IMG/VR virus record: IMGVR_UViG_3300029288_000153
Span: 10,002 to 74,001 of that record
From: a virus
Taxonomy: Duplodnaviria > Caudoviricetes
DNA: 64,000 nucleotides
Strand: one strand, 5' to 3'
The position numbers and the translations under genes were made by a program. The first letter of the stretch is position 1. Each line of letters starts with the position of its first letter. The notes under the pieces are model-generated. The model was given only the letters and a program-made list of their open reading frames with translations, ran no database searches and had not been told where the DNA came from. Below are positions 4,270 to 64,000 of this stretch, piece after piece.

Positions 4270-5571
4270 CTAAAACTCGCCGTTCCAAGGTCGGATGATT
4301 TTATCTAATGCAGCTGCTTGATCTTGTTTTGGTCCGACCTGAACAAATCGACTGTCTCCTACCAAGAAGTCTGGTGTACTCTCAATCAGATACTGGCCAT
4401 TGCGGCTCGATGGATGCGCGATACTGACCGTAAAAGGATCTGGAGGAATCAGACATCCGTTGGTGCACAGGGCACCTGTGGCCGGGTAAGATAGCATCCC
4501 GACGTGTCCGTGTCCCACAATAAATAAGCGATATGACTCCTTGCCTCGCTGGGTTTCGCCGTCGTTGATGGCCAGCATCTGTGACTCTAGGTGTTCGGTG
4601 TTAAGCGATCTCCCTACGTTGCCTACACTCAGGCAAGTATCGCCGTGGGTAGCGTATACACGCTGTCCGGCGAACGGCGAATATTCCACGAAAGGTGTGC
4701 GAGGAATTTCAACTGTGACGTTATCAATATGAGCCAACGCGGCTTTGATAGCGATGTAGATGTGGGTCGCAAAACTATCCCATTTGTCGTTGATTGCTCG
4801 ATCGGCGTGTACGCCGGGGTTCCGGTCGTGATTGCCGGAGGAGCACAAAATCGCTACCGATCGGTACTGGCTCCCTAGAATTACAAACACCTGATATAGC
4901 AACCAAACAGCGTCAGCCACCTGCTCGGCTAGTTTCGCTCCACTGGCAGATGCGTGAATCAACCCCTTAATCAGATCCCCCAGTAGTAACACAGTCAACT
5001 TGGTCTGTTTCCGGTAATCTCGCTTGAACTCACATACACTCTTAGTCACCCATGCCAGGCGACGCGCCTCCTCGACGGCGCCAAAGCGATGCGGTACCTC
5101 TCTGGGGTCCAAGTTGGATCCCAGATGTAGATCGGATAGTACCAAGGTGACCATCCTCTGTACACTGTCTTTTGGTGCTCTTTTAACACTATACCCAAAG
5201 GCCTTTGGTGCGTGTTTCGTGAACATCCGATTCATCAAATCTTCTAGCCGCGACAAAAACAGATCTTGGCTAGCCAGAGCGTTAATGGCCGATTTGCCGA
5301 TTTTGGCCATTTCCTTGAGTTCTAGCTTCTGTATTGTGTTTACAGACGGCACCGAGGTAAAGAAAGCACTCTTGATAGCGTTGAATCCGCCAATAGAGGT
5401 AACGTATGTCGAGAGTTCACGTAGAGCAGACGTATCAAACGCCTGTTCGGCCCGTAGCCATGTGCGAAACACCCCGTACGGCAAATCGACTGGCTGAATT
5501 TGTTTTCGGACACAGCACTGCGCCATCAGTCCTACTAGTTTTGTGGTCGTATCCGAAATAATTTTTGACAT
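4270..5571 (-). CDS. calcineurin-like metallophosphoesterase
   Basis: Motifs SDLHLG, LGDL, GNHD, THGD, GHGH. Confidence 0.85.
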   Translation of the reverse strand: MSKIISDTTTKLVGLMAQCCVRKQIQPVDLPYGVFRTWLRAEQAFDTSALRELSTYVTSIGGFNAIKSAFFTSVPSVNTIQKLELKEMAKIGKSAINALASQDLFLSRLEDLMNRMFTKHAPKAFGYSVKRAPKDSVQRMVTLVLSDLHLGSNLDPREVPHRFGAVEEARRLAWVTKSVCEFKRDYRKQTKLTVLLLGDLIKGLIHASASGAKLAEQVADAVWLLYQVFVILGSQYRSVAILCSSGNHDRNPGVHADRAINDKWDSFATHIYIAIKAALAHIDNVTVEIPRTPFVEYSPFAGQRVYATHGDTCLSVGNVGRSLNTEHLESQMLAINDGETQRGKESYRLFIVGHGHVGMLSYPATGALCTNGCLIPPDPFTVSIAHPSSRNGQYLIESTPDFLVGDSRFVQVGPKQDQAAALDKIIRPWNGEF

Positions 5572-49757: not shown

Positions 49758-50660
49758 ATGAACATCGACAATATCGACCACTTCCTTCAATCAGCTTTGG
49801 GCACTGAGGCATTTCGGGCGCTCCACAAGGCTACTGATCGATCCTGCGCCCTGCAATCTGTGGTAGGTACTCGGGCTATATTTGGGTGGCTGTCGCTGTG
49901 TTCCCGTTACGGCTTTGACGGTGCTTTGCCGGGGTTATCGGGGTCCTATTTTTATCTGCGCAAGAACCATGATAGTACCTTTACGGGCCAGATCAATCTA
50001 CATAAGACCCACTATGAATTCGATGCCGTGACTTTACCTCACGTGGCCGCCGGATTGAGTGTGGCTCTAGGGGTTGATCAGGCACCTGATAGTGACCTCA
50101 AGGACTCGGCCCTGGCCGCCTTAGGGCAAAATTTAGATCTACTGCTTAAGGCTCAGGTGATCAAGGATACTAATTTACCAAACAATGACGCTTGCCCCAA
50201 GTGTGGCGGAAATAATATTAAATTGGCGATGATCGGCGAGCCGGTCAACGTATGCCAAGACTGTGACAAGAAATGGGCCGTGGAGGATGAGCTAGATAAA
50301 AATCAAGGGCAAGCTACGGCTCCGGGGGCGCCTGCGAGTTTCAACCCCCCGATCGGTGCCGTAGGAACCGGCAGCAACGAAGGGTTCACTGCCCCTAAGG
50401 GCAGTCAGTCTAAACGCTCAAAAAAGAAAACTGTAGTAGCGAAGCTGTCTTTGGCGGAGAGTACATCTAAGTGTACTGTATGTGGATCTCCCCAGATGAG
50501 AGGAGATAACTTTACGGGGTGTTATTGTTTGCGATCGTTAGCTAAGGGGGCCGAGGTGGTGGGCGTGGACGAGCAGGGGTACTCGGTGAGCTTCGATCCT
50601 GATATCTGGAGTCAAGACGATGTATCGTTAATGCTAGATATTGTCAGAGAGGGGCGATAA
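49758..50660 (+). CDS. putative virion protein with two zinc ribbons
   Basis: CPKC..CQDC, CTVC..CYC; TAATCTA at 49727-49733. Confidence 0.6.
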   Translation: MNIDNIDHFLQSALGTEAFRALHKATDRSCALQSVVGTRAIFGWLSLCSRYGFDGALPGLSGSYFYLRKNHDSTFTGQINLHKTHYEFDAVTLPHVAAGLSVALGVDQAPDSDLKDSALAALGQNLDLLLKAQVIKDTNLPNNDACPKCGGNNIKLAMIGEPVNVCQDCDKKWAVEDELDKNQGQATAPGAPASFNPPIGAVGTGSNEGFTAPKGSQSKRSKKKTVVAKLSLAESTSKCTVCGSPQMRGDNFTGCYCLRSLAKGAEVVGVDEQGYSVSFDPDIWSQDDVSLMLDIVREGR

Positions 50661-51074
50661 ATGACCAAGCAGCCATTAATGTGGTTGGGTCACCCCGTTC
50701 GCGACTCCGAGCATATCAACTCACTGGAGCTTAATGCGGCCATCAATCAATATCACCACGGGATGAGTAGGGCCGATGCGGAAGCTCGGGTGAAGGACGA
50801 GGATCGTCGTGATAGGCATCTTAGGGCGGCAGCCCACCACTTCGAAGGTCTTCGCGCAGCCAATGCGGTTGGGTCCGAAGATGACGCCAAGCGGCATCAT
50901 GAAATGTACTCGATGCACCTACGAGTTTTAGGTCTAGAACCAAACGGACCGGTGCCCATTGAGATACAGCGCTATCGAGACGCCGAGACGCATCGCCGCG
51001 CCTATGCGTATAAAGGGCACTCCGACGATCAATTGCTGGCGGATGGCGCCAAAAAGAATGTTGGAGACAGGTAA
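50661..51074 (+). CDS. hypothetical His-rich helical protein
   Basis: 137 aa, operonic. Confidence 0.6.
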   Translation: MTKQPLMWLGHPVRDSEHINSLELNAAINQYHHGMSRADAEARVKDEDRRDRHLRAAAHHFEGLRAANAVGSEDDAKRHHEMYSMHLRVLGLEPNGPVPIEIQRYRDAETHRRAYAYKGHSDDQLLADGAKKNVGDR

Positions 51075-52552
51075 TGCCACAATTAACTATCAGTGCTGTT
51101 TCGAATATCTCAACGGAGATCGAGCGTCAATTACAGCACGATCACCCCGAAGAGGCAGCGCGGACCAGCCAAGGTATTTCGGCTGCCAATATGGTGGTGG
51201 AGAGTTGGGCGCTGCAGAGTCACGGTAAAATTATCTCGCAAGATGGAGCTAGTTTTACGATCGAAATCCCCGCCGCCTATCTCGAAGAGTTGGCGGAAAT
51301 CATAGAGCGCATTGAGGGTGTTAGTGGTAGTGAATATGCGGTAGGGGTAGGAGCGGATGCCGGCGAGGCTATTGTGGCTCGACGGGTCGCCGAGCAGCGC
51401 GGGGGGTCTCGAAATATCGTGCTATATACGCCAGATATTCACAGCGAAATCGAGGACGACATAAAGGATTCCGAGTCCGACATATTCGATGGTGAAATGA
51501 ATAAGGCGGAGGAGCAGAGACGCCCCGGCGAGGCCACCCAGGTGGTTAGGGGCGAGGTATCGCCGCTACACACGCAACCCTCCCCTCCGCCTAGTCCGTC
51601 GATCAGCGCCGACCCCCACGCCCCTCCGTCAGGTGATCGGCAGTCAGCTCCGGAACCGTCTGAACAGGATCTGGTTGGGGCCATTGGGCAAGTATTAAGT
51701 CAATTCAAACAACAGGTTCCGTTTTTTGAGCAGCAAGTCAAGTCAGCGAATCGACCAGCCTACGATGCTGTGATGGGGTTGGTCCAAGGGTTGATTGCTC
51801 TAGCTCAACAGTTAGTAGGTAATCCAGCAACGAACGAGGATGTAGGTGAGGCGGTACAAAAAGCTGAGGACGATATGCGTAGGTCTACTGGACGGCGTAA
51901 TCATCGATGTAGTCGGTGTGGCAACTTGGTGTCTGTGTTGAAGGACGGTCGAGTGGAAGCACATCTACACAGGCAGCTACGATCTAGCACCTTGTCGCCG
52001 TGTGACGGCGAAGCGGCGCTGCCCGTTAAAAAATCTGAGACCTCTAAGGTGGAGATCGATCCATCGAAGCCGCTGCCTGATTCCGATGCATTACGTAAGC
52101 TATTCGATTGGGCCCGGGATAGTATTATGCAACGCGGTGAGGAGGATTGGGGGGCCGATTTGTTCCGGGAGTTCCCTACAGGATTCGAGCACGAGCGTAG
52201 TGAACATCCTCATTTAGACGACCACGACACGGCGCTTACTACCATCCAACACCTCAAAGAGGATCCTAATTACTACACCAAGATTCAACACATGGAGGAG
52301 TCGGGGGTGTTGGGAAAAGAAGAGGTTGGGCGACATAGAGTGGTGCTACCTGTCGGTAGTCGCGGCGTGGGGGCCAAGGGGAATAGTATTAAGGTTCTTG
52401 AGCCAACTACAGGAAAAACCGCTTGGCACCAGATGGGTGCTGGCTGCAAACTGAGCGCCGACGGCCACCCTATTAGCACCAAAGTGACGGAGTGTGGTAG
52501 CGCCGACACGCCTGAACACCGAGCTGCTGCGGCTGGGTTAGTTGGTAGGTAG
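51074..52552 (+). CDS. modular protein: degenerate GGDEF/palm-like N-terminus, zinc ribbon, DUF5661-like domain
   Basis: SQGI..WA..HGKIISQDG..IP..AVGVG..EA..A..Y; CSRC; FEHERSEH..TIQHLKEDPNYYTKI. Confidence 0.55.
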   Translation: MPQLTISAVSNISTEIERQLQHDHPEEAARTSQGISAANMVVESWALQSHGKIISQDGASFTIEIPAAYLEELAEIIERIEGVSGSEYAVGVGADAGEAIVARRVAEQRGGSRNIVLYTPDIHSEIEDDIKDSESDIFDGEMNKAEEQRRPGEATQVVRGEVSPLHTQPSPPPSPSISADPHAPPSGDRQSAPEPSEQDLVGAIGQVLSQFKQQVPFFEQQVKSANRPAYDAVMGLVQGLIALAQQLVGNPATNEDVGEAVQKAEDDMRRSTGRRNHRCSRCGNLVSVLKDGRVEAHLHRQLRSSTLSPCDGEAALPVKKSETSKVEIDPSKPLPDSDALRKLFDWARDSIMQRGEEDWGADLFREFPTGFEHERSEHPHLDDHDTALTTIQHLKEDPNYYTKIQHMEESGVLGKEEVGRHRVVLPVGSRGVGAKGNSIKVLEPTTGKTAWHQMGAGCKLSADGHPISTKVTECGSADTPEHRAAAAGLVGR

Positions 52553-52756
52553 TTGAGGGTCGGATAATTCTAGATCGTATCTGATCGACGGAGTTGGTAG
52601 GTTTCGCTTCACCTCGCCCTGATTATCGAACCATCCCTGTGCGTCTACCCAGGTGACTCCGTCGTCTCCTTGGTGTGCATCTGGATGCCGATCGGGTTTG
52701 AGGCAGGTCTGCAGGTATATGCCGTCGTTGAAACGATTATAGCAGCGCTTGGTCAT
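52538..52756 (-). CDS. small hypothetical protein
   Basis: 72 aa downstream of the RNA ligase on the same strand. Confidence 0.45.
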   Translation of the reverse strand: MTKRCYNRFNDGIYLQTCLKPDRHPDAHQGDDGVTWVDAQGWFDNQGEVKRNLPTPSIRYDLELSDPQLPTN

Positions 52757-52856
52757 TTTTGTCGCCCCAATATTCGACTAAGGCTAGTGTGCCGATCGAT
52801 GACAGGTCCATATTAGATCTCGTAAGTTATGAGACAAGGCAGAGAAAAATCCGTTA

Positions 52857-53972
52857 TCAATGCAACTCCTTGGTGGCGCCTTTGCGGAGCTTGTATGCCT
52901 GGGAGACGTATTTCAGCACCACCCTCCCGAACCCCGTTGAGTAGCGGGTCGTCGCTGGCTTGACCACCACTCCTTCTCGGATTTGTTGTGAGGCCAGCTG
53001 GCTCTGCCCTTCCACTAATGACCGTAACATGTCTGCATCAAAAGGGCCATCGTTTAATACCGGCACGGTATCGAGTCCAAGCTGTTGGCAAATTTGGACT
53101 ACGTTATCCCATCCTAGCCAGGTGCCGGTATCCATGTCGTAGATGTCGAATACGCGAAACCACACCTGACCAGGAGATGCCTGGTAGGTAAGGTCTTGTA
53201 CGTTTCCGAAGATTTCGCCGTAAATGGCCAGCCCTTTGGCGATCGCAGCACGTAATCGATCTTGTAGGGCGTATTGACGAGCTATCAACCAGTATAGGTT
53301 TTCTTTGCGTACTGGAGTGGCCACCGGTCGCCGGGTTAGCGTACGCCACATAGAAAATAGCCGCCAGCGCCATGATGGCGGGGCCAGGGGGTCGCGCCAG
53401 AAACAATTATGCGATCCGACGTAGAATTTCTTGTCGACGTACGCAAAGCGCGCCTGAGTTCCATGTAGCTTTTCGGTGACGATCACGCGCTCTAGCGGTA
53501 TCATTAGTTCTGGGTGTGTATTATATGGCTCGATGTCATAGCGCGGGATGCATGTGGGGGTTTTTTCTTGTTGGGATGTCCCTTTAAGGGATCTATTCTT
53601 GGTTTTGGTGCCACCCCATCCTTCCGGCACTTCGTCTTCGTATTTGACGATGCCTAGGATTTTAGATACGTCTTTCTGTGGGTATGTTTGGTGAAGGGGC
53701 AGGATGGAGATGGGGAGTAGAAGCCCTTCGGAATACACGCCTCGTAGCCGACGAGCCTTGATTCGTCGGTGGTCGCCGAGGAATTCGGTGCCCGGCACCG
53801 AGGCGGGCACCACTGACTCCACGGGCACATAGATGGCTAGATCCCCGGACCGAAAATCTCCGGTGCGAATAACTACATTCTCGCCGTACACCGTCACTAC
53901 GCTGAGGTTGTCGGCGTTGGGGTGTGGTAACACTTCCCCGACAGAGATAATTGGGCAGGCGAATTTACTCAT
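52857..53972 (-). CDS. ATP-dependent RNA ligase (DRB0094/Rnl2-like) with N-terminal OB-like domain
   Basis: PHPNADNL..GDLAIYVP; VTEKLHGT; YGEIFG; FDI; REGVVVKP; LKYVS..Y. Confidence 0.88.
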   Translation of the reverse strand: MSKFACPIISVGEVLPHPNADNLSVVTVYGENVVIRTGDFRSGDLAIYVPVESVVPASVPGTEFLGDHRRIKARRLRGVYSEGLLLPISILPLHQTYPQKDVSKILGIVKYEDEVPEGWGGTKTKNRSLKGTSQQEKTPTCIPRYDIEPYNTHPELMIPLERVIVTEKLHGTQARFAYVDKKFYVGSHNCFWRDPLAPPSWRWRLFSMWRTLTRRPVATPVRKENLYWLIARQYALQDRLRAAIAKGLAIYGEIFGNVQDLTYQASPGQVWFRVFDIYDMDTGTWLGWDNVVQICQQLGLDTVPVLNDGPFDADMLRSLVEGQSQLASQQIREGVVVKPATTRYSTGFGRVVLKYVSQAYKLRKGATKELH

Positions 53973-54041
53973 TGGTTTCCTTGTATCTCAATTGATTAGA
54001 TCATGAGCGAATATGATACTCTGACTATAACACATGTTCTG

Positions 54042-54440
54042 CTACACGCGGGGGGCGGGGGCGGTTGGTGGACCCGTTTTGTGGACCCGTACATAGATCC
54101 ACCTAATCTTGGCTCCTGGGGGGAGCGATATCGCACCTTCGGGTAGTCGCGGTCCATTGTACTGCGCGACTAAGATCTCGTCACCTGCTAGCAGCGACGT
54201 GGTCACCCTACGCACCTCGATAGGCTGATCGAGCATGGTGGTCAGGAGCTGCGCCGTGTCTGCGTGGCCTACACATGATGTGAACCCACCGTCGATCGAC
54301 CAATTATGAAGCATCAAGCAAGCGTCTGTGATGCTGCCCACCTGTCGGCACTCTAGCCACCGAGTAACTCCGCATGTCGATAGGTCGTCCAGCATCCCCA
54401 GGCTGATGGCGTTTGCGATATACCGCATTTTATTCTCCAT
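54042..54440 (-). CDS. acrIII-1: AcrIII-1 family (DUF1874) anti-CRISPR ring nuclease
   Basis: YIANAISLGML..SCVGHADTAQLL..RRV..L..GD.ILVAQ..PRLPEG, matching SIRV1 gp29 YLANAFSINML..SIGHDST..NRV..LYVVQ..RLEEG; the catalytic GH is retained. Confidence 0.88.
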   Translation of the reverse strand: MENKMRYIANAISLGMLDDLSTCGVTRWLECRQVGSITDACLMLHNWSIDGGFTSCVGHADTAQLLTTMLDQPIEVRRVTTSLLAGDEILVAQYNGPRLPEGAISLPPGAKIRWIYVRVHKTGPPTAPAPRV

Positions 54441-54461
54441 TTCGTTTGAGTCAGTTTATCC

Positions 54462-54519
54462 GGCCCACGGGAATCTCCGATCTGTCAGCGACTCCTGTAG
54501 GCGCCCAAAGGTGAGGGCG
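54462..54519 (-). repeat. structured intergenic element, copy F (P4 degenerate)
   Basis: Core CGCCTACAGGA at 54493-54503. Confidence 0.85.
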
Positions 54520-54527
54520 ATCACGCT

Positions 54528-54944
54528 CTACTGCGCAATGGTCCAGGTCTTGTCACCTACGACGATGTTGTGGACCGACCATATAACATCGCCAGCTCTA
54601 GAAAATCCGTCTGATCCATGGACGATCCATCGGCCCGGACCTACCCTATACCCCTTGGGCTCCCTCTCTCCCCACGTCGCGGTATTGCCGCTCCCGCGTC
54701 GCGCCCATCCCTTTCCCCGACTAAGTAATTCGTACCGGTGGTGCGGCAGTACGATTGTAGATCCGCGACTCAGTCTCGGGGCACCCGCAAGACGAGCAAA
54801 TATCTCGTCACTTACGATCGGGTGTGCGATCGTAAGTGACTCCGTCCGTGCCGTGCTGATGTCGTGGATCCCGAGTCGGGCGATTCTGCCCTCTACGGTC
54901 TCGGTTTCGGTCGTCATGATTTCATCTCCCTGTGTCGTCGTCAT
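54528..54944 (-). CDS. hypothetical protein (array cassette)
   Basis: Leaderless ATG 54944 or RBS-led ATG 54917. Confidence 0.7.
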   Translation of the reverse strand: MTTTQGDEIMTTETETVEGRIARLGIHDISTARTESLTIAHPIVSDEIFARLAGAPRLSRGSTIVLPHHRYELLSRGKGWARRGSGNTATWGEREPKGYRVGPGRWIVHGSDGFSRAGDVIWSVHNIVVGDKTWTIAQ

Positions 54945-54950
54945 ATATAA

Positions 54951-54979
54951 AGTCTACCATATATAAACCACAGTGTCAA
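54951..54979 (-). promoter_or_regulatory. sigma70 promoter TTGACA-17-TAGACT with extended -10
   Basis: Hexamers read directly. Confidence 0.85.
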
Positions 54980-54997
54980 GTGGCTTTAAAGATTAAT

Positions 54998-55045
54998 GTC
55001 TTACCGACGCCATTGGTAGATCCTGTAGGCGCCCACTCAACGGGT
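54998..55045 (-). repeat. structured intergenic element, copy E (3-prime truncated)
   Basis: Core at 55021-55031. Confidence 0.75.
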
Positions 55046-55317
55046 GGAGTTACGGGGGGCAACTAGTTCGTCCCACGACCGGAGCACGGTCTCGGGTACG
55101 ATCGCTGATCCCATCTGGGAATCGACCCACTCCCCGTCCGAGCCCCCCCGTGACAGCGCGCGGCTTCGAGGCGCGCTACCCGAGTCTGCTCCTTGCGCGC
55201 CAAATGCTCTAGTGCCCGACTGCGCGCCCAATCTCGCACGTCCGCCACCGGGATGGTGTCCGTCGGATCACTGCCGAGCAGTCCTTCCGCCAGTAAATGT
55301 GCCTCATGGTCATTGCT
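55037..55317 (-). pseudogene. possible degraded or frameshifted small gene (G7 tract at 55143-55149)
   Basis: No clean start. Two partial frames (55063-55317 and 55037-55231) are each protein-like on one side of the tract. Confidence 0.3.
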
Positions 55318-55698
55318 TCACCCATCCTTTTTGGCATGCATCACTGCAATTTGCCGAGAGTCCGAATCGCTGAAGTCAGCATCCTGCAGGTCAGCGCCAC
55401 GGAGGTCGGCGTCCCGCAGGTTGGACTCGGTGAAGTCCACGCCACACAGGCTCGCGCAGCTGAAGTCGGCGTCCCGCAGGTCAGCGCCGCGGAGGTCCAC
55501 GCCACGCAGGCTTGCATGACGGAGGTCAGCGACCCGCAGGTCAGTGTAGCTGAGGTCAGCGTAGCTGAAGTCCAGGCCCCGCAGGTCAGCGCCGCGGAGG
55601 CACTCACCTGACCAATTCAGTGGTTGTCCCGTGTCGTGATTCTCCAGCCAGAGCTGATGTGCATCGTACTCGATTTGATGTTTCACTGAGAGTTTCAT
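55318..55698 (-). CDS. pentapeptide repeat protein
   Basis: Repeats such as LRGAD LRGLD FSYAD LSYTD LRVAD; GGAGG RBS. Confidence 0.9.
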   Translation of the reverse strand: MKLSVKHQIEYDAHQLWLENHDTGQPLNWSGECLRGADLRGLDFSYADLSYTDLRVADLRHASLRGVDLRGADLRDADFSCASLCGVDFTESNLRDADLRGADLQDADFSDSDSRQIAVMHAKKDG

Positions 55699-55713
55699 GT
55701 GATGCCCTCCTGT

Positions 55714-55790
55714 TGGGCCCTATTGCCCACAGGGTGTGTCGACTCACCGTCGACACGTCCTGTAGGCGCCTTACTCCTGCTCCGCGCCCG
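55714..55790 (-). repeat. structured intergenic element, copy D
   Basis: Core at 55758-55768. Confidence 0.9.
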
Positions 55791-55792
55791 GA

Positions 55793-56191
55793 TTAGGTGA
55801 CAATCGATGGCGGAGGCAATCCTCGGCGATAGTCGCCTAGGTAGTTATACTCCGAGTCGTAAGCGCACCACATTGGGGCGCCCAAGAAGGAATAATCTCC
55901 CGCCCATCGCTCCCACGCAGCGGCCCGGACAGACTCCCGCGTCAGGGCGTCTGCGGGTCGGACGCGACCATGCAGACACTCCATGCCCGCTGCGCCACAT
56001 ATGGCGCATCGTTTATACTGCGCGTGACACTCCGCAGTATGCCCTGGCGCCACTGGCCGATATGCGTTTCGCGGGTCTCCTGTACACCCTGGACACCTGC
56101 CCGCGAACGTGAGCCAGCGGCGATGGGCCGGCTCCGCCGCCTGTAGCTCTGCCCCCAACGCGTCGTCGATCGGGTGTGCGTATTCCACCAT
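55793..56191 (-). CDS. hypothetical Cys-rich protein (array cassette)
   Basis: CPGC, HxxxC, CAIC, ECLH; GAGGAG RBS. Confidence 0.7.
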   Translation of the reverse strand: MVEYAHPIDDALGAELQAAEPAHRRWLTFAGRCPGCTGDPRNAYRPVAPGHTAECHAQYKRCAICGAAGMECLHGRVRPADALTRESVRAAAWERWAGDYSFLGAPMWCAYDSEYNYLGDYRRGLPPPSIVT

Positions 56192-56204
56192 ATTGTCTCC
56201 TCAT

Positions 56205-56272
56205 CGGGCTCCACTGCCCGCGGGGAGGCTCGATCGTCGAGCCGTCCCGTAGGCGGGCGCGCGAGGCGCCCG
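56205..56272 (-). repeat. structured intergenic element, copy C (compensatory variant)
   Basis: Core CGCCTACGGGA at 56245-56255. Confidence 0.85.
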
Positions 56273-56285
56273 GGGGATCAGTCTC

Positions 56286-56528
56286 CTATCGGGCTCTCGT
56301 AGCCTGGATAGCCTGCATGATCTCCATAGATCCTCCATCTGCGTGGAGAAATGCTAGGCGATAGAGCGCCTCTTTTCCACCATCCTGGAGGATGATCACG
56401 TAGTTTTTGCGTTTCACGGCGTCATGGTCCCGCCAATCTGGCGTGCGCCCCTCAAGCCGCTGCACATCCTCGATGCGCGCGAGCCGTTTGATTAAGACCG
56501 TGCCCCCGGACCGTTCGTAGATCGCCAT
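56286..56528 (-). CDS. hypothetical protein (array cassette)
   Basis: GAGGAG RBS, 80 aa. Confidence 0.7.
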   Translation of the reverse strand: MAIYERSGGTVLIKRLARIEDVQRLEGRTPDWRDHDAVKRKNYVIILQDGGKEALYRLAFLHADGGSMEIMQAIQATRAR

Positions 56529-56542
56529 ATTGTGCTCCTCGT

Positions 56543-56614
56543 CGGGCCCTTTTGCCCGCAGGAATCTGTCACCGTCAGTGACCGACTCCTGTAGGCGCCC
56601 CTCCGCAGAGGGGC
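56543..56614 (-). repeat. structured intergenic element, copy B
   Basis: Core at 56587-56597. Confidence 0.9.
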
Positions 56615-56620
56615 GGGGGG

Positions 56621-56896
56621 CTAGTCCGCGACCGGTCTACCGCCGGGTGTGATGATGCCAGCGGCACGGAGATCGGAGAGGACGGCGGCGGAGAGATCAC
56701 GGTCGAAGGGGGACCCAAAATTGTCAGCCGTGAACCAATGCCGGCGAAGCGCAGGACAATCATCGTCATCACAACCGTAACCGCATGAGCATCCGGGATC
56801 GGTGTAGTCTACCAACTCGGCTCCGTGTTGTTGTGCGATCAGAGCGGCCCGCCTGCCAAGATGGCCACGCCCTGAACCAAACAGAAATTCTGACAT
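56621..56896 (-). CDS. hypothetical protein with CxCxxxC..C..HW cluster (array cassette)
   Basis: AAAGGA RBS, 91 aa. Confidence 0.7.
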   Translation of the reverse strand: MSEFLFGSGRGHLGRRAALIAQQHGAELVDYTDPGCSCGYGCDDDDCPALRRHWFTADNFGSPFDRDLSAAVLSDLRAAGIITPGGRPVAD

Positions 56897-56909
56897 AATG
56901 TCCTTTCAT

Positions 56910-56980
56910 CGGGCCCTTTTGCCCGCAGGGTGTGTCGACTCACCGTCAACACGTCCTGTAGGCGCCCCTCTGGAGAGGGG
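56910..56980 (-). repeat. structured intergenic element, copy A
   Basis: Core at 56954-56964. Confidence 0.9.
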
Positions 56981-56985
56981 TACAA

Positions 56986-57189
56986 TCAGTTTTTGGCGGC
57001 GGCTCGCTTCATAGTGTAGCGAACCAGCAAGGGGATGTCAAGACAGAAGATCGATAGGATCCATATATAGCCGATATATCTCAAGGCGGTTACGTCAGTG
57101 AATGCGACCAACAAGCCCGCCAGGGCAAGCTCGACTCCGACGATAATCAGATGCGACAACCTAGGAATACTGTTTAGTTTTGGAAGCAT
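56986..57189 (-). CDS. small two-TM membrane protein (first gene of the array)
   Basis: Two hydrophobic helices. Confidence 0.6.
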   Translation of the reverse strand: MLPKLNSIPRLSHLIIVGVELALAGLLVAFTDVTALRYIGYIWILSIFCLDIPLLVRYTMKRAAAKN

Positions 57190-57228
57190 GGAGGGGTCCT
57201 ATTAGAGGTGAGTGTGTCGTACAGGCAA

Positions 57229-57257
57229 ACTATAACACAGCCGGTCTAGGATGTCAA
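57229..57257 (-). promoter_or_regulatory. sigma70 promoter TTGACA-17-TATAGT (extended -10) driving the array
   Basis: Hexamers read directly. Confidence 0.85.
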
Positions 57258-57273
57258 AGGGTAATCTATTAAT

Positions 57274-58149
57274 ATGTCTGACATCATCTGCCAACTAGAT
57301 TTCGGCGAAGTCAAGAGCATCGCCAAGGACCTCGTAGCACTAGATGCCGAGGTACGCAAGAGGGCGGGGGATTTGGCCTCGCAGGCTCACCTACATTTAC
57401 TAGAGCTAGCTCAACAAAACCTACATACCACCCGACAGACCTACGTGGACGCTCTACGGTCGGTTGAGGAGGTGTCCCCTGGGGTGTTCGTGATCGTGTT
57501 AGATAAGTCCGCGCTGTGGATCGAAGACGGCATGGAAACCCATGAAATGATTGACGATTTACTTAAGAATAACGCCAAAACATCTAAGTCCGGGTCGCGC
57601 TATAAGGTGATTCCGTTTGATATTGGTCGGGGCGGGGCCAGCCAGTCACCCGGGCAAAACGCATTAAACCAAGCCTTGCGCGCAGAACTAAAGAAACGGG
57701 GGATAAAATACAAAGGAATCGAGCGCAACCCCGATGGGTCCCCCAAAATAGGCCTGCTACATAGTTTCAATATTTCCCGCACTCCGATTCGTCCGGCTGG
57801 TACCGCCGGTAAGCCTGGGTGGGGAAAAGGGGCAGTTGGAGACGTGATGGCAGGACCGGCGAACCCAGGAGAGTTGTCTGGAATTCCGCTGTTGCACGGC
57901 GTGCGCATCTATCAACATGCCCTACAAAAACCGACTGGCGAGCCTGAATTCAATAAACAAGGGCACCAAAAGGCGACGCGCAACATCACCACCTTTCGTG
58001 TCGTGTCGTCGACCCAGAAGGGTACGGGCAAGTGGGTGCATCCTGGACTGACACCTCGACTGTTTTTTGAAAAAACAGAAACCTGGGTCGAGAACCAATG
58101 GGAACAGCACGTGCTTCCTGATATTTTATCTCGTCTGACCCGAGATTAG
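57274..58149 (+). CDS. putative neck/tail-completion protein (HK97 gp10-like)
   Basis: TRQTYVDAL..LDKSALWIEDG..RYKVIPF..FRVVS..WVHPG; TAATCTA at 57262-57268. Confidence 0.55.
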   Translation: MSDIICQLDFGEVKSIAKDLVALDAEVRKRAGDLASQAHLHLLELAQQNLHTTRQTYVDALRSVEEVSPGVFVIVLDKSALWIEDGMETHEMIDDLLKNNAKTSKSGSRYKVIPFDIGRGGASQSPGQNALNQALRAELKKRGIKYKGIERNPDGSPKIGLLHSFNISRTPIRPAGTAGKPGWGKGAVGDVMAGPANPGELSGIPLLHGVRIYQHALQKPTGEPEFNKQGHQKATRNITTFRVVSSTQKGTGKWVHPGLTPRLFFEKTETWVENQWEQHVLPDILSRLTRD

Positions 58150-58352
58150 TCTCGCTCAACCGGTAAGAAGCGCACATAGAACCGCTGTCGTGACTGCGAC
58201 AATAACCAGATAAGGTACCCGTCGATCGTTATGGGGTCGCTTGATTCGGAAATTATTTCGGCGGTATGGCAGAGACGATATCTCGATTTCGGGATAAGGA
58301 AGTATTGGGAACATAGAGGTCTCTTGTGTGGTTAATGAACATCCTCGTCTAG

Positions 58353-58380
58353 ACTATAACATACCTAACTAGAATGTCAA
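58353..58380 (-). promoter_or_regulatory. sigma70-type promoter TTGACA-16-TATAGT
   Basis: Hexamers read directly; a possible ~52-aa membrane ORF lies downstream, near 58160-58320. Confidence 0.6.
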
Positions 58381-58401
58381 GCGTAATCTAGCTATCAGCA
58401 C

Positions 58402-59760
58402 ATGGAAACGTCTATATCGCCGCTACAAGCCCCCGACTCTGCCGGGTCTTCTGTCGATCCAGGGAGTCGCGATGTCGATGCGTCGACCGCTGCCCAGCAG
58501 ATTATTGCGTCGGCCGTGGATGCCTATTACGGTATCTTACTCGATTTGCGGAAGCGTGAGACCCAGCATCTAATAAGCAAAAATCGACTGCGTAGAGACA
58601 TTTCGGCTCAGCAAGATACCACTCCATCTAACCCCCACTCAGGAAATATTGGAGTTGATAGCGCAACACGGAAGGCGGAGAAACCAATGAAACTCCATGA
58701 GCTGCTGAAGTCCCAGGGTACCAAGCTACCGACGACCAAAAAGGCCGAGTTCCCTACTACCAATCGGTTTAGCCGGAAATTGGCGGGTATCCGAGAGCAG
58801 GGGCAGAAGGACAGCACTTCGTCGCCGCAGAATGTCACCGGTATGATCTCTAAGTCGATCTTTAAGCGTATGGCCGACATGAGCAAGCAGGAGTTTTTTA
58901 TTGACCTAAAGACCCCCTCTGACTCTCAGAAGAGACTTAAAGAGGTTCACCCCGTCCGGGAGGCCAAGGTGCCGTTTGGTGATTTTACGTCCAAGGCGAT
59001 TGAGTGCTCGGCTTGTGGAGGTAAGATTACAGAGAACCAGCCTAAGCCGATCAAGAGCCAGAGCGCAGACGAAAACAGTATAGTAGAGGGCAGTGTTGGA
59101 GTTACCGACAGCAAAAACGACCTCATCGCCAAGGCGGCTCTCTTGTATCACGCCAAGAAGGCGCAAGAGAAATACGACAAGGCCAAGCCGGGCTCGGTGG
59201 AGTATAGTTTATTTGAAGAGAGCGCCCCCAAGGTATTACATCCCGACGACAAAAAAAATCAATCTCCAAAAAAGAAAATCGCCAAGGCGGCTGCGGCGAT
59301 GTCGGCCCCTAAGGCCCCTACGGCCCCCGGGATGGGAAGCCCTAAGTTGAGTGGTGGGGCCCCGACCAAACCTCCGACCTCCACCGCCACGGCCAACACC
59401 ACCGCCAACACGATAGGGAAGGCAGAGGAATCCCCCGAGGCCTCAAAGTGTAAGCAATGTGGACGCGTAGGCAAGAAGATAGTAACCAAAGCTATCCTCC
59501 CTTTTTCCGAGCAAAAAGGCGCCCAGGCGGCGGCGATGGGGGTCCCTCAGGGTTCTCAATCTGAGCAGCGAGCTGTCCCGCATGATCCTAGTGATTACGA
59601 CCCTGACCTGTATCGACCTACCGGCCCCGTCAAGTCTGGGCTGCTCACCCAAGAGGAGTTCAACCAAGCTGGGGCTACCATGCCTGGGCTAGGGGTCACA
59701 CCTCGGCCTGCTCAGCCAATTCGCAGCCCGGCTGTCCATCGCAATGTTCGGTATAAGTAA
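58402..59760 (+). CDS. low-complexity putative internal head/scaffold-like protein with multiple [LIV]xK[SA] motifs
   Basis: LLKS, ISKS, IAKA (x2), IGKA, VTKA; CSAC, CKQC; TAATCTA at 58384-58390. Confidence 0.6.
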   Translation: METSISPLQAPDSAGSSVDPGSRDVDASTAAQQIIASAVDAYYGILLDLRKRETQHLISKNRLRRDISAQQDTTPSNPHSGNIGVDSATRKAEKPMKLHELLKSQGTKLPTTKKAEFPTTNRFSRKLAGIREQGQKDSTSSPQNVTGMISKSIFKRMADMSKQEFFIDLKTPSDSQKRLKEVHPVREAKVPFGDFTSKAIECSACGGKITENQPKPIKSQSADENSIVEGSVGVTDSKNDLIAKAALLYHAKKAQEKYDKAKPGSVEYSLFEESAPKVLHPDDKKNQSPKKKIAKAAAAMSAPKAPTAPGMGSPKLSGGAPTKPPTSTATANTTANTIGKAEESPEASKCKQCGRVGKKIVTKAILPFSEQKGAQAAAMGVPQGSQSEQRAVPHDPSDYDPDLYRPTGPVKSGLLTQEEFNQAGATMPGLGVTPRPAQPIRSPAVHRNVRYK

Positions 59761-59843
59761 CGGTCCTAATCTAACAGAAGACGCACCGAGGCGTATATAA
59801 TGGCCTGCTCACGGCTAGATAATAATGAGACAGGAGATAAGAA

Positions 59844-62279
59844 ATGACAATCCAATATGTCGATCAGGACGGAACACTCGTCATCCCCGGTGGATACGCT
59901 AAATGGAGTGTATCGCCATCTAATAACGGGCTGGCGACTCGGGGCGTGGTGTGTCTGGTTGGTGAGGCCGCAATGGGCAACTCCTACTCTGAAGAGGAGA
60001 GCGGACTAGGTGGTGCGTCGTTTGGTCCCGGGCAGTTCAAGTCCGTGGCCCTCCAGTACGGGTCCGGTCCTTTGGTAGATGCGTTTCGGGTGGCCTGCAA
60101 CCCCTCTAGGGATCCTGCTATTCGCGGAGCCCCCACCAGGATCATTTGCGTAAAGACCAATACTGGCACAAAAGCTACCGGTACGTTTACGGGCGCCTAT
60201 GCGGTGGCTAGGGCCAAGTCGGCGGGTGCCTGGGGCAATCTAATCAGCTGTCAGGTTACTGCCGCTGTCGCCGAGGTGGTTCCGTCGATTACGTCTGGAT
60301 TTATCTATTTGGATGACACTGAATCAATCTCCTTGGCGGCCAATGGTGGTACCGCGGTGGTGTTGGATGTGACCGGCATCACCCCGGCGGCGTTTGTAAC
60401 CGACAACGCAGCCGCGCTCGCGGCGGAAGATATTGCCCTTACGGGCGGAGTTAAGAGCCAGCCAGCACTTGGGCTGGTCATGGTGACAGCTGGGGTGGTG
60501 GCTGTCGGCAATGTGATTACTATTTCATTGACCGGAGGCACCTGGTCGTCTCAGCCAGCTACTGGCGCGATCTTGGAGATTGCCGACACGTCACCGATTA
60601 CTGGTGGTAGTAATCAGAACTCGGGGCAGTACATCGTGACTTCGTCTAGCACCACCGGATTGGTGGCCACTAAGATTATCGACCTGGACGGCGCCACCCT
60701 GACCCCTCCCGTAACGATCGCTCCTGGGGCGACTGCTGACGTGGGCCTTCTCGATGCCTATTCGCAGCTAGTGTTCACCAATGCTGCCGCCGATGTGCCT
60801 GGCCTAGGTCGAACATTGACGCTATACCGAGATGGTACTTCGGCTAGTGCCCATTTGTTCCAGTCTGCCACGCCGGTTACCGCCAGTCAATTTATTACTT
60901 CCACCACCGAGGCGGCTAGGAATATTCTGGTCAACCGCAGCGTGGATTCGCTGTCTGAGTCTTTCCGAGTCGGCGGCAATATTGTTATGTCGATTGGGCG
61001 GGTAGGGGTGTCGGCCATTCCGGTTGTCGTAGGCGCGGTTGATATCAACTTCAACAGCTCGGAATTTGTCATCGTCAAGACCGACCTCGCCACCTTAGGT
61101 GACCTGGCGGCCAGGATCAACGCGCAGCCCAACTGGTACGCGACCGTTCCCGCCGCATTCCGATCTTTGCCTCTTAGTGTTTTGGATCAGGGAACATTTG
61201 ATGCTCGTCAAAATGGCGTCGTATCTACCGGCCCGGCACGAGTTAAGAAAGACGCCTACGACGTAGCCGCCAAGCTGGCGACCTCGCGGGGTATCGAGTT
61301 AGTCACCGCCCCCACGGCGGGCATGCCGGCGGTACAGGCTACGTTTTTCTTGGCGGGCGGCGCAAAAGGGGCAACCACTGACCTAGCCGTTGCGGCTGCC
61401 TTGGAAGCCGCTGGACAGACTCGTTGTAACTTTGTTGTGCCTTTGTTTGCTAGGGATGCGACTAGCGATATTGCTGATGGACTCACTGACGCGGCGTCCA
61501 CATATACGATCGATGGTATCAACTCTTATGTGTCCGAGCACGTCACCGCCTATAGCAAATTTAAAAAGAGGCGACCACGTCAAGGTTTCTGCTCCAAAAA
61601 GACCACCTTTGCCTTAGCCCAAACCGCTGCTCAGACTTTGGCTAATCCTCGGTTGTTGATGGGGTTCCAGGATGTCGTAGCTCTCGGCGCCAATGGGACT
61701 CAGTGGTTCCAGCCTTGGATGGGGTCGGTGGTGGCGGCGGGCATGCAGGCGGCCGGATTTTACCAGCCAGTTTTCAACAAGGCGATTGCGATCACCGGCG
61801 TGACTCAGGCGGCTGGAGATTTTGATTGCCAAGATGACGATCAGGTCGAAGTTGCCCTGTCGGCTGGCCTGAGCGTAATCCGCGAACGTGATGGAGGTGG
61901 GTTTGCTTTTGTCTCTGACCAGACCACCTACACGGTCGACGGTAATTTCGTCTATAATTCTGTACAGGCACAGTATATCAGCGACCTGATCTCCCAGACG
62001 GTCGCTCAGAGGATGGAGTTAGCTTTTGTGGGGCGAAGCTTCGCTGACGTGTCAGCGTCGGCCGCCTTGTCATACCTGAAAGGCATCATGGCCGATCTGA
62101 AGCGACTCAAACTCATCACAAGCAGTGACGATGCGGTGGAAGGGTACCGCAATGCGGTCATCACCATCTCGCCGCCGGCTATGAGGGTCAGTGCCGAGGT
62201 GAAGATCGCGTCGGGGTTGTACTTCTGTGTCGTAGATTTTTTGATGTCGGAAACCACGCAGGTTGCGTCGCAAGGGTAA
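59844..62279 (+). CDS. contractile tail sheath protein
   Basis: IPGGY..GVVCLVGEA..G..YGSGPLVDA; C-terminal VQAQYISD..FVG..S..L..L..ITSS..GY..VI; precedes the tube gene. Confidence 0.88.
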   Translation: MTIQYVDQDGTLVIPGGYAKWSVSPSNNGLATRGVVCLVGEAAMGNSYSEEESGLGGASFGPGQFKSVALQYGSGPLVDAFRVACNPSRDPAIRGAPTRIICVKTNTGTKATGTFTGAYAVARAKSAGAWGNLISCQVTAAVAEVVPSITSGFIYLDDTESISLAANGGTAVVLDVTGITPAAFVTDNAAALAAEDIALTGGVKSQPALGLVMVTAGVVAVGNVITISLTGGTWSSQPATGAILEIADTSPITGGSNQNSGQYIVTSSSTTGLVATKIIDLDGATLTPPVTIAPGATADVGLLDAYSQLVFTNAAADVPGLGRTLTLYRDGTSASAHLFQSATPVTASQFITSTTEAARNILVNRSVDSLSESFRVGGNIVMSIGRVGVSAIPVVVGAVDINFNSSEFVIVKTDLATLGDLAARINAQPNWYATVPAAFRSLPLSVLDQGTFDARQNGVVSTGPARVKKDAYDVAAKLATSRGIELVTAPTAGMPAVQATFFLAGGAKGATTDLAVAAALEAAGQTRCNFVVPLFARDATSDIADGLTDAASTYTIDGINSYVSEHVTAYSKFKKRRPRQGFCSKKTTFALAQTAAQTLANPRLLMGFQDVVALGANGTQWFQPWMGSVVAAGMQAAGFYQPVFNKAIAITGVTQAAGDFDCQDDDQVEVALSAGLSVIRERDGGGFAFVSDQTTYTVDGNFVYNSVQAQYISDLISQTVAQRMELAFVGRSFADVSASAALSYLKGIMADLKRLKLITSSDDAVEGYRNAVITISPPAMRVSAEVKIASGLYFCVVDFLMSETTQVASQG

Positions 62280-62312
62280 TGGCCCCCTAGAGGACAAGAA
62301 GGAGATTTAACT

Positions 62313-62807
62313 ATGGCAGTCTCAAAAACTATGCATGGCGCCCGAGCCATCATTTGGGCGGGTAGCACTCCACTAGGGATCTTTAACCAATGCTCGTACG
62401 GGCGAAATTACGACATCACCCCCGTCTATCTAATTGGTCGGGTCACCGCTGCTGAGTTGGTCTACACGGGCGCTGAGGTGATCACTGTTTCCTGCTCGGG
62501 GTTCCGGGTCATGGGGCATGGTCCGTTTGCGAGTGTTGATCCTACAGGTAATGGGCTAGTTCCAAAGTTGCAGAATATCCTAAACACCGAAGATATCACA
62601 CTTAGCCTACATGATCGTCTTGAGCCTGATCCCGACAAGGGGACTATCATGGTTCTGACTAACGTCAAGGCTCAGGGATTCCAATCGTCGGTGTCGGCGA
62701 GATCGATTCAGGATTTGGCACTCACCTTTATGGGCATCCATCTTTCTGATGAGTCAGGGGCGCAGGAAGAGGCGCCGGGTGCGGTCGATTTGCCGGCAAC
62801 GGAATAA
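62313..62807 (+). CDS. tail tube protein
   Basis: SKTMHGARA..LGIFNQCSYG..PVYLIGR..ELVYTG..SCSGFRV; follows the sheath gene. Confidence 0.8.
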   Translation: MAVSKTMHGARAIIWAGSTPLGIFNQCSYGRNYDITPVYLIGRVTAAELVYTGAEVITVSCSGFRVMGHGPFASVDPTGNGLVPKLQNILNTEDITLSLHDRLEPDPDKGTIMVLTNVKAQGFQSSVSARSIQDLALTFMGIHLSDESGAQEEAPGAVDLPATE

Positions 62808-62875
62808 TCCGGCTTCTTAGGATCCAAAACAAACACGTACAACGATAAATCCCGATCTGGGTGAGTGGAGATACA

Positions 62876-64000
62876 ATGGCTCGAAACGAAAAAATTATTC
62901 GCCTAGGCAAAGCAATCGAGGATAGTCTAGTCCTTCAGGGGTTGGATGTGGTGGTCTCCTACGACGCCTCCAATGACCTGTATATGACAATCGCTGACTC
63001 GGGGCCCGCCCCCGTAAATGCAATCGTAAAACTAGACAAGATTGCCCAGCTGGGGAACAACCAGACCAACCCCGTCACCGGGATAGCGAATGACGTCTAT
63101 ACCCCACATGTGATCAAGCTTGGCTTTGGTGCCTTGGCGGCGGCGAACGGAACCTATACGATTGGTGATGATCTAATAGCTGGCGATAAGGCGACGATCG
63201 ATAGCAATGACTTTGCGGCCGTTGATAGCGGTGCGGTAGGTGATGAGTGGAATATTATAGGCACCAAGGCAACTGGATCGGCCACCCTTCTGTCTGGTCT
63301 TACCGCTGGCGATGCAGTCGCTGCGGCCAATGTGCTGACTATTAACACGCATGGGTTTACTGCCAAAAACTCAGGTGCGGCCGGCGATGAGTTCGACATT
63401 GTCGGTACCCCAGCGGTCGGCACCGTCCAGGTGGGCGCAGACTTAATTGCCGGCGACAAAGTGACGATTGACGGACATGATTTTGTGTCGATCGATAGCG
63501 GGGCGGCCGGCGATGAATTCAATATTACGGGCACGTACGGTGGAGGCACGGTGGAGCTTTTGGCTGCCCTGACCGCCGGAGACGCCCTGGTGGCCACCAA
63601 TGACGTGATCGTTGGTGGAGTTGCCTTTACTGCCAAGAATAGCGGGGCGGGTGCAAACGAATTTAATCTGGTCGGTACCCCGGCTTCTGAGGATTTGACC
63701 GTTGGAGCAAATCTGACCGCCGGCGATACCGCGATAATCAACGGAGTGACCGTTACGGCGGTAGATAGCGGTGCGGTAGGTGATGAGTTCGACATTGTCG
63801 GCGTACCAGCTGCTAGCACGGTTCAATGCGCTGGGGTAGTAGACACCAACACGGTGCTACTGGGAGGCGTCACGTTAACGGCCACTGTGGCGACCCAAGA
63901 TGCCACGAATTTCATTGTGGGAATTAGCGACACCGAGACGGCAACTAACCTCTGCACTACCATTGCCGCCAACCCCACCTTATCAGCTCTGGTCACCGCC
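62876..64000 (+). CDS. G/A/D/T-rich repetitive virion protein (partial, runs off window end)
   Basis: GGAG RBS, ATG 62876, 375 open codons: MARNEKIIRLGKAIEDS... with at least five LxAGD..(I)xG..F....SGAxGDEFxIxG repeats. Confidence 0.75.
   Translation, partial: MARNEKIIRLGKAIEDSLVLQGLDVVVSYDASNDLYMTIADSGPAPVNAIVKLDKIAQLGNNQTNPVTGIANDVYTPHVIKLGFGALAAANGTYTIGDDLIAGDKATIDSNDFAAVDSGAVGDEWNIIGTKATGSATLLSGLTAGDAVAAANVLTINTHGFTAKNSGAAGDEFDIVGTPAVGTVQVGADLIAGDKVTIDGHDFVSIDSGAAGDEFNITGTYGGGTVELLAALTAGDALVATNDVIVGGVAFTAKNSGAGANEFNLVGTPASEDLTVGANLTAGDTAIINGVTVTAVDSGAVGDEFDIVGVPAASTVQCAGVVDTNTVLLGGVTLTATVATQDATNFIVGISDTETATNLCTTIAANPTLSALVTA

Follow-up and report, generated by a model that had tools for sequence, protein, structure and literature searches.

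A covarying intergenic element at the boundaries of exchanged phage gene cassettes, and its possible role as a portable mRNA leader

The window, meaning the whole stretch of 64,000 nucleotides analyzed, belongs to a 74-kb contig of an uncultured phage and carries an array of small accessory genes on its minus strand, to which all the features below belong. A sigma-70-type promoter (TTGACA-17-TATAGT, 11/12; 57229..57257) heads the array and is followed by g1 (56986..57189), a hydrophobic protein of 67 aa from the conserved backbone, whose leader contains no element. Downstream lie g2 (91 aa; 56621..56896) and g3 (80 aa; 56286..56528), both without a known family, g4 (132 aa; 55793..56191), a Cys-rich ORFan whose sole match among 5.8 billion proteins was itself, g5 (126 aa; 55318..55698), a pentapeptide-repeat protein, and g7 (138 aa, or 129 aa if translation starts at the second ATG; 54528..54944), again of no known family. 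The two remaining genes encode a DUF1874/STIV B116-like protein (g8, 54042..54440; PF08960, 5e-8; PDB 2j6b and 2j85) and an RNA ligase, which is the last product of the operon (g9, 52857..53972). The DUF1874/STIV B116-like family includes the AcrIII-1 ring nucleases. A second sigma-70-type promoter (10/12; 54951..54979) is predicted to drive g7-g9. The three best promoter-like sites of the region (10-11 of 12) are located outside the elements described below, with a weak site (9/12) starting in the degenerate tail immediately 3' of copy F. Since the promoter-like sites are all on the coding strand, antisense RNA is unlikely. No terminator-like site was detected on the minus strand. The GC content of the array reaches 57-59% compared to about 52% for the genome, which suggests import.

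Within this array we observed six copies (A to F) of an intergenic element of approximately 70-90 nt, each placed after a stop codon and ahead of the following start, as the original prediction had proposed. All six contain the core GCCUACRGGA, which has no other occurrence in the 74-kb contig. Using a core-containing 12-mer and allowing up to two mismatches, we recovered six minus-strand matches (ending at 56965, 56598, 56256, 55769, 55032 and 54504), five of them exact and one with a single mismatch. The nine other matches all carried exactly two mismatches, were scattered on both strands and were as numerous in shuffled sequences, and no additional exact copy was present in the whole 74-kb record. 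Only copies A to D are complete. Element A (56910..56980, subtype I, 82.6 bits) is composed of a hairpin P1 (56980-56965), the core (56964-56954), a P2/P3 hairpin (56958-56926) and a last hairpin P4 (56925-56910), with the start codon of g2 located 13 nt past P4. Element D (55714..55788, subtype I, 67.4 bits) is near-identical to A and has a P1 loop of 14 nt. In element B (56543..56614, subtype II, 76.8 bits), P2 runs into P3 as a single helix of about 14 bp, and the P3 of element C (56205..56271, subtype III, 73 bits) is common to copies in the unrelated phages L008 and L057. Element E (55021..55047) is truncated to a short P1 and the core, after which come unrelated sequence and the second promoter, and element F (54463..54518, 62.1 bits) kept P1, the core and a long subtype II hairpin and lost P4. 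The g8-g9 junction has no element.

We then analyzed the fold. For A, B and D folded alone, the minimum free energy structure is exactly the three-hairpin fold (z-scores of -4.55, -5.62 and -5.60, respectively; 0/200 shuffles as stable), and the single-copy z-scores range from -3.1 to -5.6, F being at -3.13. Across 15 copies from this and other phages, both sides change in 14 of the 22 pairs, a count that none of 500 shuffles attained; 88% of the cells are paired, compared to 71% in shuffles and 36-50% in slid controls. RNAalifold independently found P1 and a long hairpin with 12 compensatory pairs. These results confirm a covarying structured element, in which P1 and P2/P3 are well supported and P4 is mostly invariant. 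The expected P2 pairs, CAGG:CCUG in A, B and D and CGGG:CCCG in C, were retrieved, as was the change of P1 and P3 sequences among copies with conservation of their pairing. The compensatory change proposed for P4 stood in part: the closing pair is C-G in A-C and U-A in D, but the U-A of D is polymorphic and sister strains have C.A at this place. Two further proposals lost support. In the RNAalifold consensus, the core and the invariant GYGGGC form a basal stem for a long bulged hairpin of 13-18 bp, with 1x1 and 2x2 internal loops and with P4 excluded, so that the core is probably not simply single-stranded as first described. Pairing of CCU(A) with the P4 loop as a pseudoknot amounts to 3 bp at most, does not covary and competes with this basal stem. 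The wobble pairs (11 G.U versus 9 A.C) do not identify the folded strand. In 10 of the 15 copies the antisense strand gives the more stable long hairpin (summed energies of -395 kcal/mol for antisense versus -367 kcal/mol for sense), and a single-stranded DNA hairpin is therefore possible.

The position of the element relative to genes is constrained. The 15 full copies, the truncated E and three divergent copies are all co-oriented with their flanking genes, with a stop codon on one side and a start codon on the other for every copy. The element starts a few bases past the upstream stop codon, and the distance from the end of P4 to the ATG is 13-15 nt in 8 of 12 copies, despite differing Shine-Dalgarno sequences. 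We also considered an insulator keeping the Shine-Dalgarno unpaired and rejected it, the predicted accessibility being 0.51 with the native and 0.51 with the shuffled element, although a few start codons were mis-picked.

To evaluate the distribution of the element, we scanned IMG/VR, JGI metagenomes and 185,579 species genomes for the motif, and found true copies in about eight contigs only. Besides the window, these are approximately seven uncultured GC-rich phage contigs with 1-3 copies each, beside genes unrelated to those of the window. Between most carrier contigs, the element is the only nucleotide similarity, and P3 subtypes are common to unrelated phages. About 25 bases are invariant across phages without shared genes, the longest invariant run being of about 15 nt, and the P1 and P3 sequences are free to vary. 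No trans-acting protein common to all carriers was found by tblastn, and searches through the RNA ligase and DUF1874 genes returned no close relatives. Among the species genomes, the motif scan gave 115 pattern matches, chance-like or in coding sequence, none with P1 plus P3, which led us to reject a chromosomal repeat of the REP/BIME type. Searching the cultured phages of INPHARED with a 3.3-kb query and with two single elements returned pentapeptide-gene and chance matches only. In agreement with the original prediction, which could name no known riboswitch or ribozyme, positions 50000-64000 had no Rfam 15 match at E<=1 in a cmscan run with permissive filters. The REP-type GTAG motif, CsrA-type GGA sites, nut boxA/boxB and tRNA-like ends, judged by eye, did not fit. 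Taken together, these results establish that the element is real and undescribed.

The check proposed for relatives, whether genes are gained or lost exactly at the element, was positive in a set of five sister-strain contigs (L222-L226), each compared with the window. L225 and L226, in which g1 is identical, show 99.9-100% identity to the window until 4 nt inside P1 of A and then diverge, an unstructured 62-nt leader standing after g1 instead of the element. In L223, divergence starts 5 nt before P1 of C, and P2-P4 of element D are deleted between two ACAGGA repeats; the element is thus dispensable at some junctions. L224 carries a chimeric B/C element and has lost g3. In L222, divergence reaches 24% for g5 and 5% for g3, with at most 0.5% for g4, g7, g8 and g9. 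For the pair G003-G004, homology begins at the first base of P1. Overall, in six independent comparisons the breakpoints fall at or inside elements: at the 5' edge of P1 in three cases, directly after the core in two and inside P4 in one. Divergence between the aligned strains is cassette-wise, and the comparisons show that the element travels with its downstream gene and marks the site of cassette exchange, deletion and replacement, among strains and among unrelated phages.

The putative action of the element is most likely on messenger RNA. Our leading interpretation, which we hold tentatively and at somewhat less than even odds, is a portable intercistronic mRNA leader, acting in processing or stability, that doubles as a homology patch for cassette shuffling. 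On the message, the GC hairpin P1 would be followed by either of two alternatives, the long bulged hairpin based on the pairing of the core with GYGGGC, or the shorter P2/P3 hairpin together with P4. A host endonuclease of the RNase III type, specific for double strands or for structure, would cleave the early polycistronic message within the long hairpin or beside it. P1 would then cap the 3' end of the upstream message, and the remaining hairpin or hairpins would cap the 5' end of the downstream message just before its Shine-Dalgarno, so that an acquired gene may be expressed independently of its neighbours. The conserved blocks would at the same time serve as homology patches for recombination. 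In the early region of T7 and T3, the host polymerase transcribes an operon that contains anti-defence genes and whose cistrons are separated by RNase III sites, a family of bulged hairpins resembling one another. The element is likewise an intercistronic bulged hairpin in an early polycistronic operon run from sigma-70-type promoters, with anti-defence genes, conserved internal loops and variable upper stems. It differs by its shorter hairpin, an extra upstream P1 and a competing P4, and there is no sequence similarity to the T7/T3 sites. The covarying fold, the constrained position relative to genes, the conservation beside unrelated genes and the breakpoints at cassette boundaries favour a portable leader of this kind. 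Against it count the dispensability at some junctions, wobble pairs that do not point to a strand, the stability of the antisense hairpin, the unchanged Shine-Dalgarno accessibility and a hairpin that, at 13-18 bp, is shorter than expected of a classical RNase III substrate.

The shuffling part of this interpretation has a parallel in the PeSLs (promoter-early stem-loops) of T4-type phages, in which a sigma-70 promoter is fused to a terminator hairpin (Arbiol 2010, PMC2839356; Comeau 2014, PMC4122927). As with PeSLs, a short conserved intergenic motif is repeated among small non-essential genes, as in the hyperplastic region of myoviruses, indels and replacements between close relatives are bounded by the motif (here L222-L226 versus the window), and a gene is lost when the copies on either side of it recombine. 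The proposed analogy was therefore borne out for the indels bounded by the element and not for the architecture: the element has neither an internal promoter nor a U-tract or intrinsic terminator, and it is a leader of about 70-90 nt inside an operon, with two or three covarying helices.

It is also conceivable, though rather unlikely, that the element acts primarily as DNA, its conserved blocks and hairpin promoting recombination through fork stalling, template switching or mini-circles, so that cassettes made of the element and a gene spread between co-infecting phages with a secondary effect on RNA. The breakpoints of the six comparisons, the chimeric B/C copy, the P3 subtypes shared by unrelated phages, the import suggested by the GC content and an antisense hairpin at least as stable as the sense one all agree with this. 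However, a recombination patch needs neither the 13-15 nt spacing to the start codon nor strict co-orientation with genes, covariation indicates selection on the hairpin itself, for which exchange driven by homology has no need, and no recombinase is consistently present. Because the breakpoints occupy three or more positions, this is not a site-specific system. The layout, with conserved outer boxes around a variable paired centre in an imperfect junction palindrome, recalls integron attC sites and CALINs, as do the small same-strand genes behind one promoter and the gain and loss of cassettes. Nevertheless, the element is not an attC site, contrary to an analogy raised at the outset. It lies upstream of its gene whereas attC lies downstream; when both strands of 15 copies were searched by regular expression, R'' (RYYYAAC) and R' (GTTRRRY) boxes never occurred as a pair, three copies having one incidental match outside the hairpin; and the breakpoints at the P1 5' edge, after the core and inside P4 differ from a single fixed crossover point. 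An IntI-type tyrosine recombinase (PF00589) is absent from the 74-kb record of the window (about 45% complete) and from 3 of 4 carrier records, the lone match being an ordinary phage integrase.

We consider it unlikely that the element is an operator, on RNA or DNA, whose invariant core and GGGC-N6-GCCC hairpin are bound by a protein of the host or the phage, or by a small RNA, that tunes translation or transcription of the accessory genes. The parallel would be the Cluster A stoperators or the SAS/ESAS of Cluster K mycobacteriophages, the latter sharing with the element a GGG..CCC-clamped, purine-rich motif before the starts of non-structural genes, Shine-Dalgarno-like in the loop, with an inverted repeat upstream, a single orientation and unrelated genes (PMC3203893). 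The bases kept invariant across phages without common genes favour such a regulator, but the carriers have no protein in common and pairing within a helix can account for the core in full. The element also lacks the SAS sequence: SAS has a 13-nt consensus, is itself the ribosome-binding site and lies 3-7 nt from the start (PMC3203893), whereas P4 has another sequence, stops 13-15 nt short of the ATG and precedes a distinct Shine-Dalgarno. In addition, ESAS half-sites were reported not to covary (PMC3203893), unlike the helices of the element, which are also unrelated to them in sequence.

More improbable is a new kind of device that marks cassette boundaries autonomously, either a protein-independent self-cleaving RNA excising the message of each accessory gene or a folded single-stranded DNA site for a putative, possibly host-encoded, recombinase. 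In the latter case, if true, lytic phages would possess an integron-like platform for anti-defence genes without IntI or attC. A new small self-cleaving ribozyme that cuts the accessory-gene messages apart without protein appears very improbable: three helices around invariant junction nucleotides, a possible weak pseudoknot, a repeated phage-borne occurrence and the lack of an Rfam match would suit it, but the base of a hairpin is the simpler account of the junction, neither F nor the divergent copies have P4, and tertiary contacts show no covariation. Lastly, an RNA decoy against host defence (a CRISPR-repeat or antitoxin mimic), in line with the DUF1874 gene in the array and the several copies on one early transcript, is highly unlikely, because contiguous conservation of at most about 15 nt is below any CRISPR repeat, P1 and P3 vary freely, other phages have only 1-3 copies and the 185,579 genomes gave scattered chance-like single matches with none array-like.

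Phage accessory regions have the fastest turnover of anti-defence genes, yet only in very few phage groups are the sequences that enable this turnover known. The element described here has covarying helices, occurs in phages that are otherwise unrelated and coincides with breakpoints that could be placed within a few bases in one natural population. It offers a concrete model of how ORFans and anti-defence genes, including a DUF1874 (AcrIII-1-like) gene, may be packaged for both expression and exchange. A covariance model of the element could be used to probe metagenomes for such islands and, if the RNA is cleaved, the element would represent a compact natural cistron separator.

The repeated element first noticed on the minus strand is real. 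A 12-mer containing its core, GCCUACRGGA, has six minus-strand matches within 2.5 kb (five exact, one with one mismatch); all remaining matches in the window carry two mismatches and do not exceed the shuffle expectation in number, and no further exact copy was found elsewhere in the 74-kb record. Copies A to D are complete, with a hairpin P1, the core, a P2/P3 hairpin and P4 (GGGC-N6-GCCC), then a Shine-Dalgarno sequence and ATG. Copy F (54463..54518) has lost P4, and copy E is reduced to a short P1 plus the core, with unrelated sequence carrying a sigma-70-type promoter downstream.

These copies belong to an array of small minus-strand genes with a GC content of 57-59%, compared to about 52% for the genome. 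The window covers bases 10002-74001 of the IMG/VR virus record, which has an estimated completeness of about 45% and contains a tail-sheath gene, and the phage is therefore myovirus-like. Promoter 1 (57257-57229, minus strand, TTGACA-17-TATAGT) precedes genes g1, g2, g3, g4, g5 (pentapeptide repeat, 55318-55698, minus strand) and a short g6; promoter 2 (54979-54951, minus strand) precedes g7, g8 (DUF1874/STIV B116-like; PDB 2j6b and 2j85) and g9 (RNA ligase), all on the minus strand. Both promoter regions (57229-57290 and 54951-55010, minus strand) have in common an upstream AT-rich block, AGACAT..TAAT, plus TTGACA, which suggests paralogous promoter modules. Near its 3' end, g1 itself contains a third promoter-like site (10/12), at 57041-57013 (minus strand). 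In the stretch that separates g5 from element E (55063-55337, minus strand), two frames hold short ORFs that overlap (33-42 aa and 61 aa); the matching region of the sister-strain contig L222 has one 93-aa gene call and 20 gap columns, a possible frameshift or indel polymorphism. Across the window, GATC, with 452 copies, and CGATCG, with 54, appear over-represented by rough expectation, and HIP1 (GCGATCGC), with only 2 copies, is not.

The covarying structure that had been predicted was borne out in 15 copies aligned to a covariance model: 88% of cells were paired compared to 71% in shuffles, both sides changed in 14 of 22 pairs, none of 500 shuffles reached the observed score, and a slid-partner control gave 36-50% pairing. 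Compensatory pairs were found in P1 (5/6) and P2/P3 (8/11), and these two helices are well supported by the alignment. The three-hairpin fold was the MFE structure of A, B and D folded in isolation (52-86% of the ensemble); z-scores were -3.1 to -5.6 for A-D and F, the five copies folded in this way. P4 is mostly invariant, and the one compensatory pair it has, in D, appears as C.A in sister strains. The core, thought to be single-stranded, was instead paired by RNAalifold with the equally invariant GYGGGC. The long hairpin that results has a 1x1 loop, which is conserved, as well as a 2x2 loop, and its formation excludes P4. With natural flanks included, the MFE picks the long hairpin or the P4 fold, each in about half of the copies. 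Upstream stop codons (window 56986, 56621, 56286, 55793, 55063 and 54528, plus relatives) are TAG in 13 of 16 copies, compared to 26% among the long ORFs of the window (binomial P ~7e-6, the copies not being independent); UAG/GUAG of the stop could pair with CUA/CUAC of the core across P1.

Five sister-strain contigs from other samples, obtained by exact-protein look-up of g4 (a Cys-rich ORFan) and g1, provided the decisive new evidence, and gene gain or loss at the element, the check proposed at the outset, was seen among them. L225 and L226 match the window at 99.9-100% identity on the sheath side, through g1 and as far as 56977, four bases into P1 of element A (56910..56980); past this point they have a CA-rich leader of 62 nt that lacks the element, then two different genes. 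A common translation-initiation block (GA-rich Shine-Dalgarno sequence, then ACC ATG ACG A) is found ahead of unrelated genes in more than one phage (L225 4205-4275, L226 493-560, L007 ~5150, L087 ~1430). L225 and L226 have this leader in common and diverge immediately beyond the first codons, and it is therefore a second type of recombination joint. In L223, the gene upstream of C differs and identity with the window begins five bases before P1; in its element D, P2-P4 is precisely deleted between two ACAGGA repeats, so that the core AGGA becomes the ribosome-binding site of g5. L224, without g3 and with a different upstream gene, has a chimeric element directly before g4, B-like in P1, core and P3 and C-like starting with the P4 loop. 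Collinear with the window, L222 diverges from it cassette-wise (g5 24%, g3 5.3%, g4, g7, g8 and g9 0-0.5%), with elements C, E and F identical. The difference in g5 beside almost identical neighbours suggests that the allele was replaced or has diversified rapidly. Breakpoints occupy three or more different positions.

Motif scans, then the covariance model R1, recovered true copies in no more than a handful of other uncultured contigs: G001-G004 (IMG/VR phages of 33-39 kb), the L057 contig, and L087 and L090 from metagenomes, with 1-3 copies in each. Three more divergent copies (L031b, L033b, L090b) have a core with GCCCAC. The element was not found in 50,697 cultured-phage records, in 185,579 species genomes or in Rfam; the family is new. 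Carrier contigs are GC-rich, with no flanking genes in common with the window, and the element accounts for all nucleotide similarity between most of them. The few P3 subtypes cross phage boundaries (as in window C, matched by L008 and L057, and window B and F, matched by L007b). The homology of G003 and G004 begins with P1's first base and runs into the downstream gene. Taken together with the strain variants, this start of homology indicates that the element behaves as the 5' boundary of an element-plus-gene cassette. The gene 3' of the element (L031 1209-1604 versus L033 3388-4473) encodes 361 aa in G004; the G003 version has lost ~780 bp internally, and its frame consequently stays open across the next element, a divergent one. 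A second repeat family occupies the same kind of position in GC-rich relatives (L007 ~4440-4520, minus strand; L087; L031 1442-1532; L033 4474-4559; L219). It comprises, in order, a P1-like hairpin whose stem contains GATC, another kind of long hairpin and a Shine-Dalgarno sequence; the G003 copy lies upstream of an HNH-AP2 homing-endonuclease gene.

A hairpin acting at the DNA level is possible. Wobble counts are near-equal (11 G.U, 9 A.C) and do not assign the folded strand, and the long hairpin is more stable antisense in 10 of 15 copies because the conserved A.C mismatch turns into G.U on that strand. Membership in PeSLs was rejected on promoter and terminator, and in SAS/ESAS on sequence and position. 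An attC-type site, proposed initially, was rejected on three defining features, one being the breakpoint positions.

Element and genes are co-oriented in every copy, copies are confined to stop-start gaps, in 8 of 12 copies P4 is separated from the ATG by 13-15 nt although Shine-Dalgarno sequences differ, the element travels with its downstream gene, and promoter-like sites occur on the coding strand only. These features link the element, at the mRNA level, to expression of the gene downstream. For these reasons we favour a portable intercistronic leader, which would either be processed or stabilise flanking messages. Three points go against a simple version of this reading: certain natural junctions are without the element, the predicted accessibility of the ribosome-binding site was not improved by it, and a hairpin could act at the DNA level. 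Such a leader would follow the logic of T7 early RNase III sites, with a putative cleavage step and nuclease. As in PeSLs, where motif conservation supplies homology for cassette shuffling (PMC2839356, PMC4122927), the conserved sequence of the element also supplies homology for the shuffling of cassettes.
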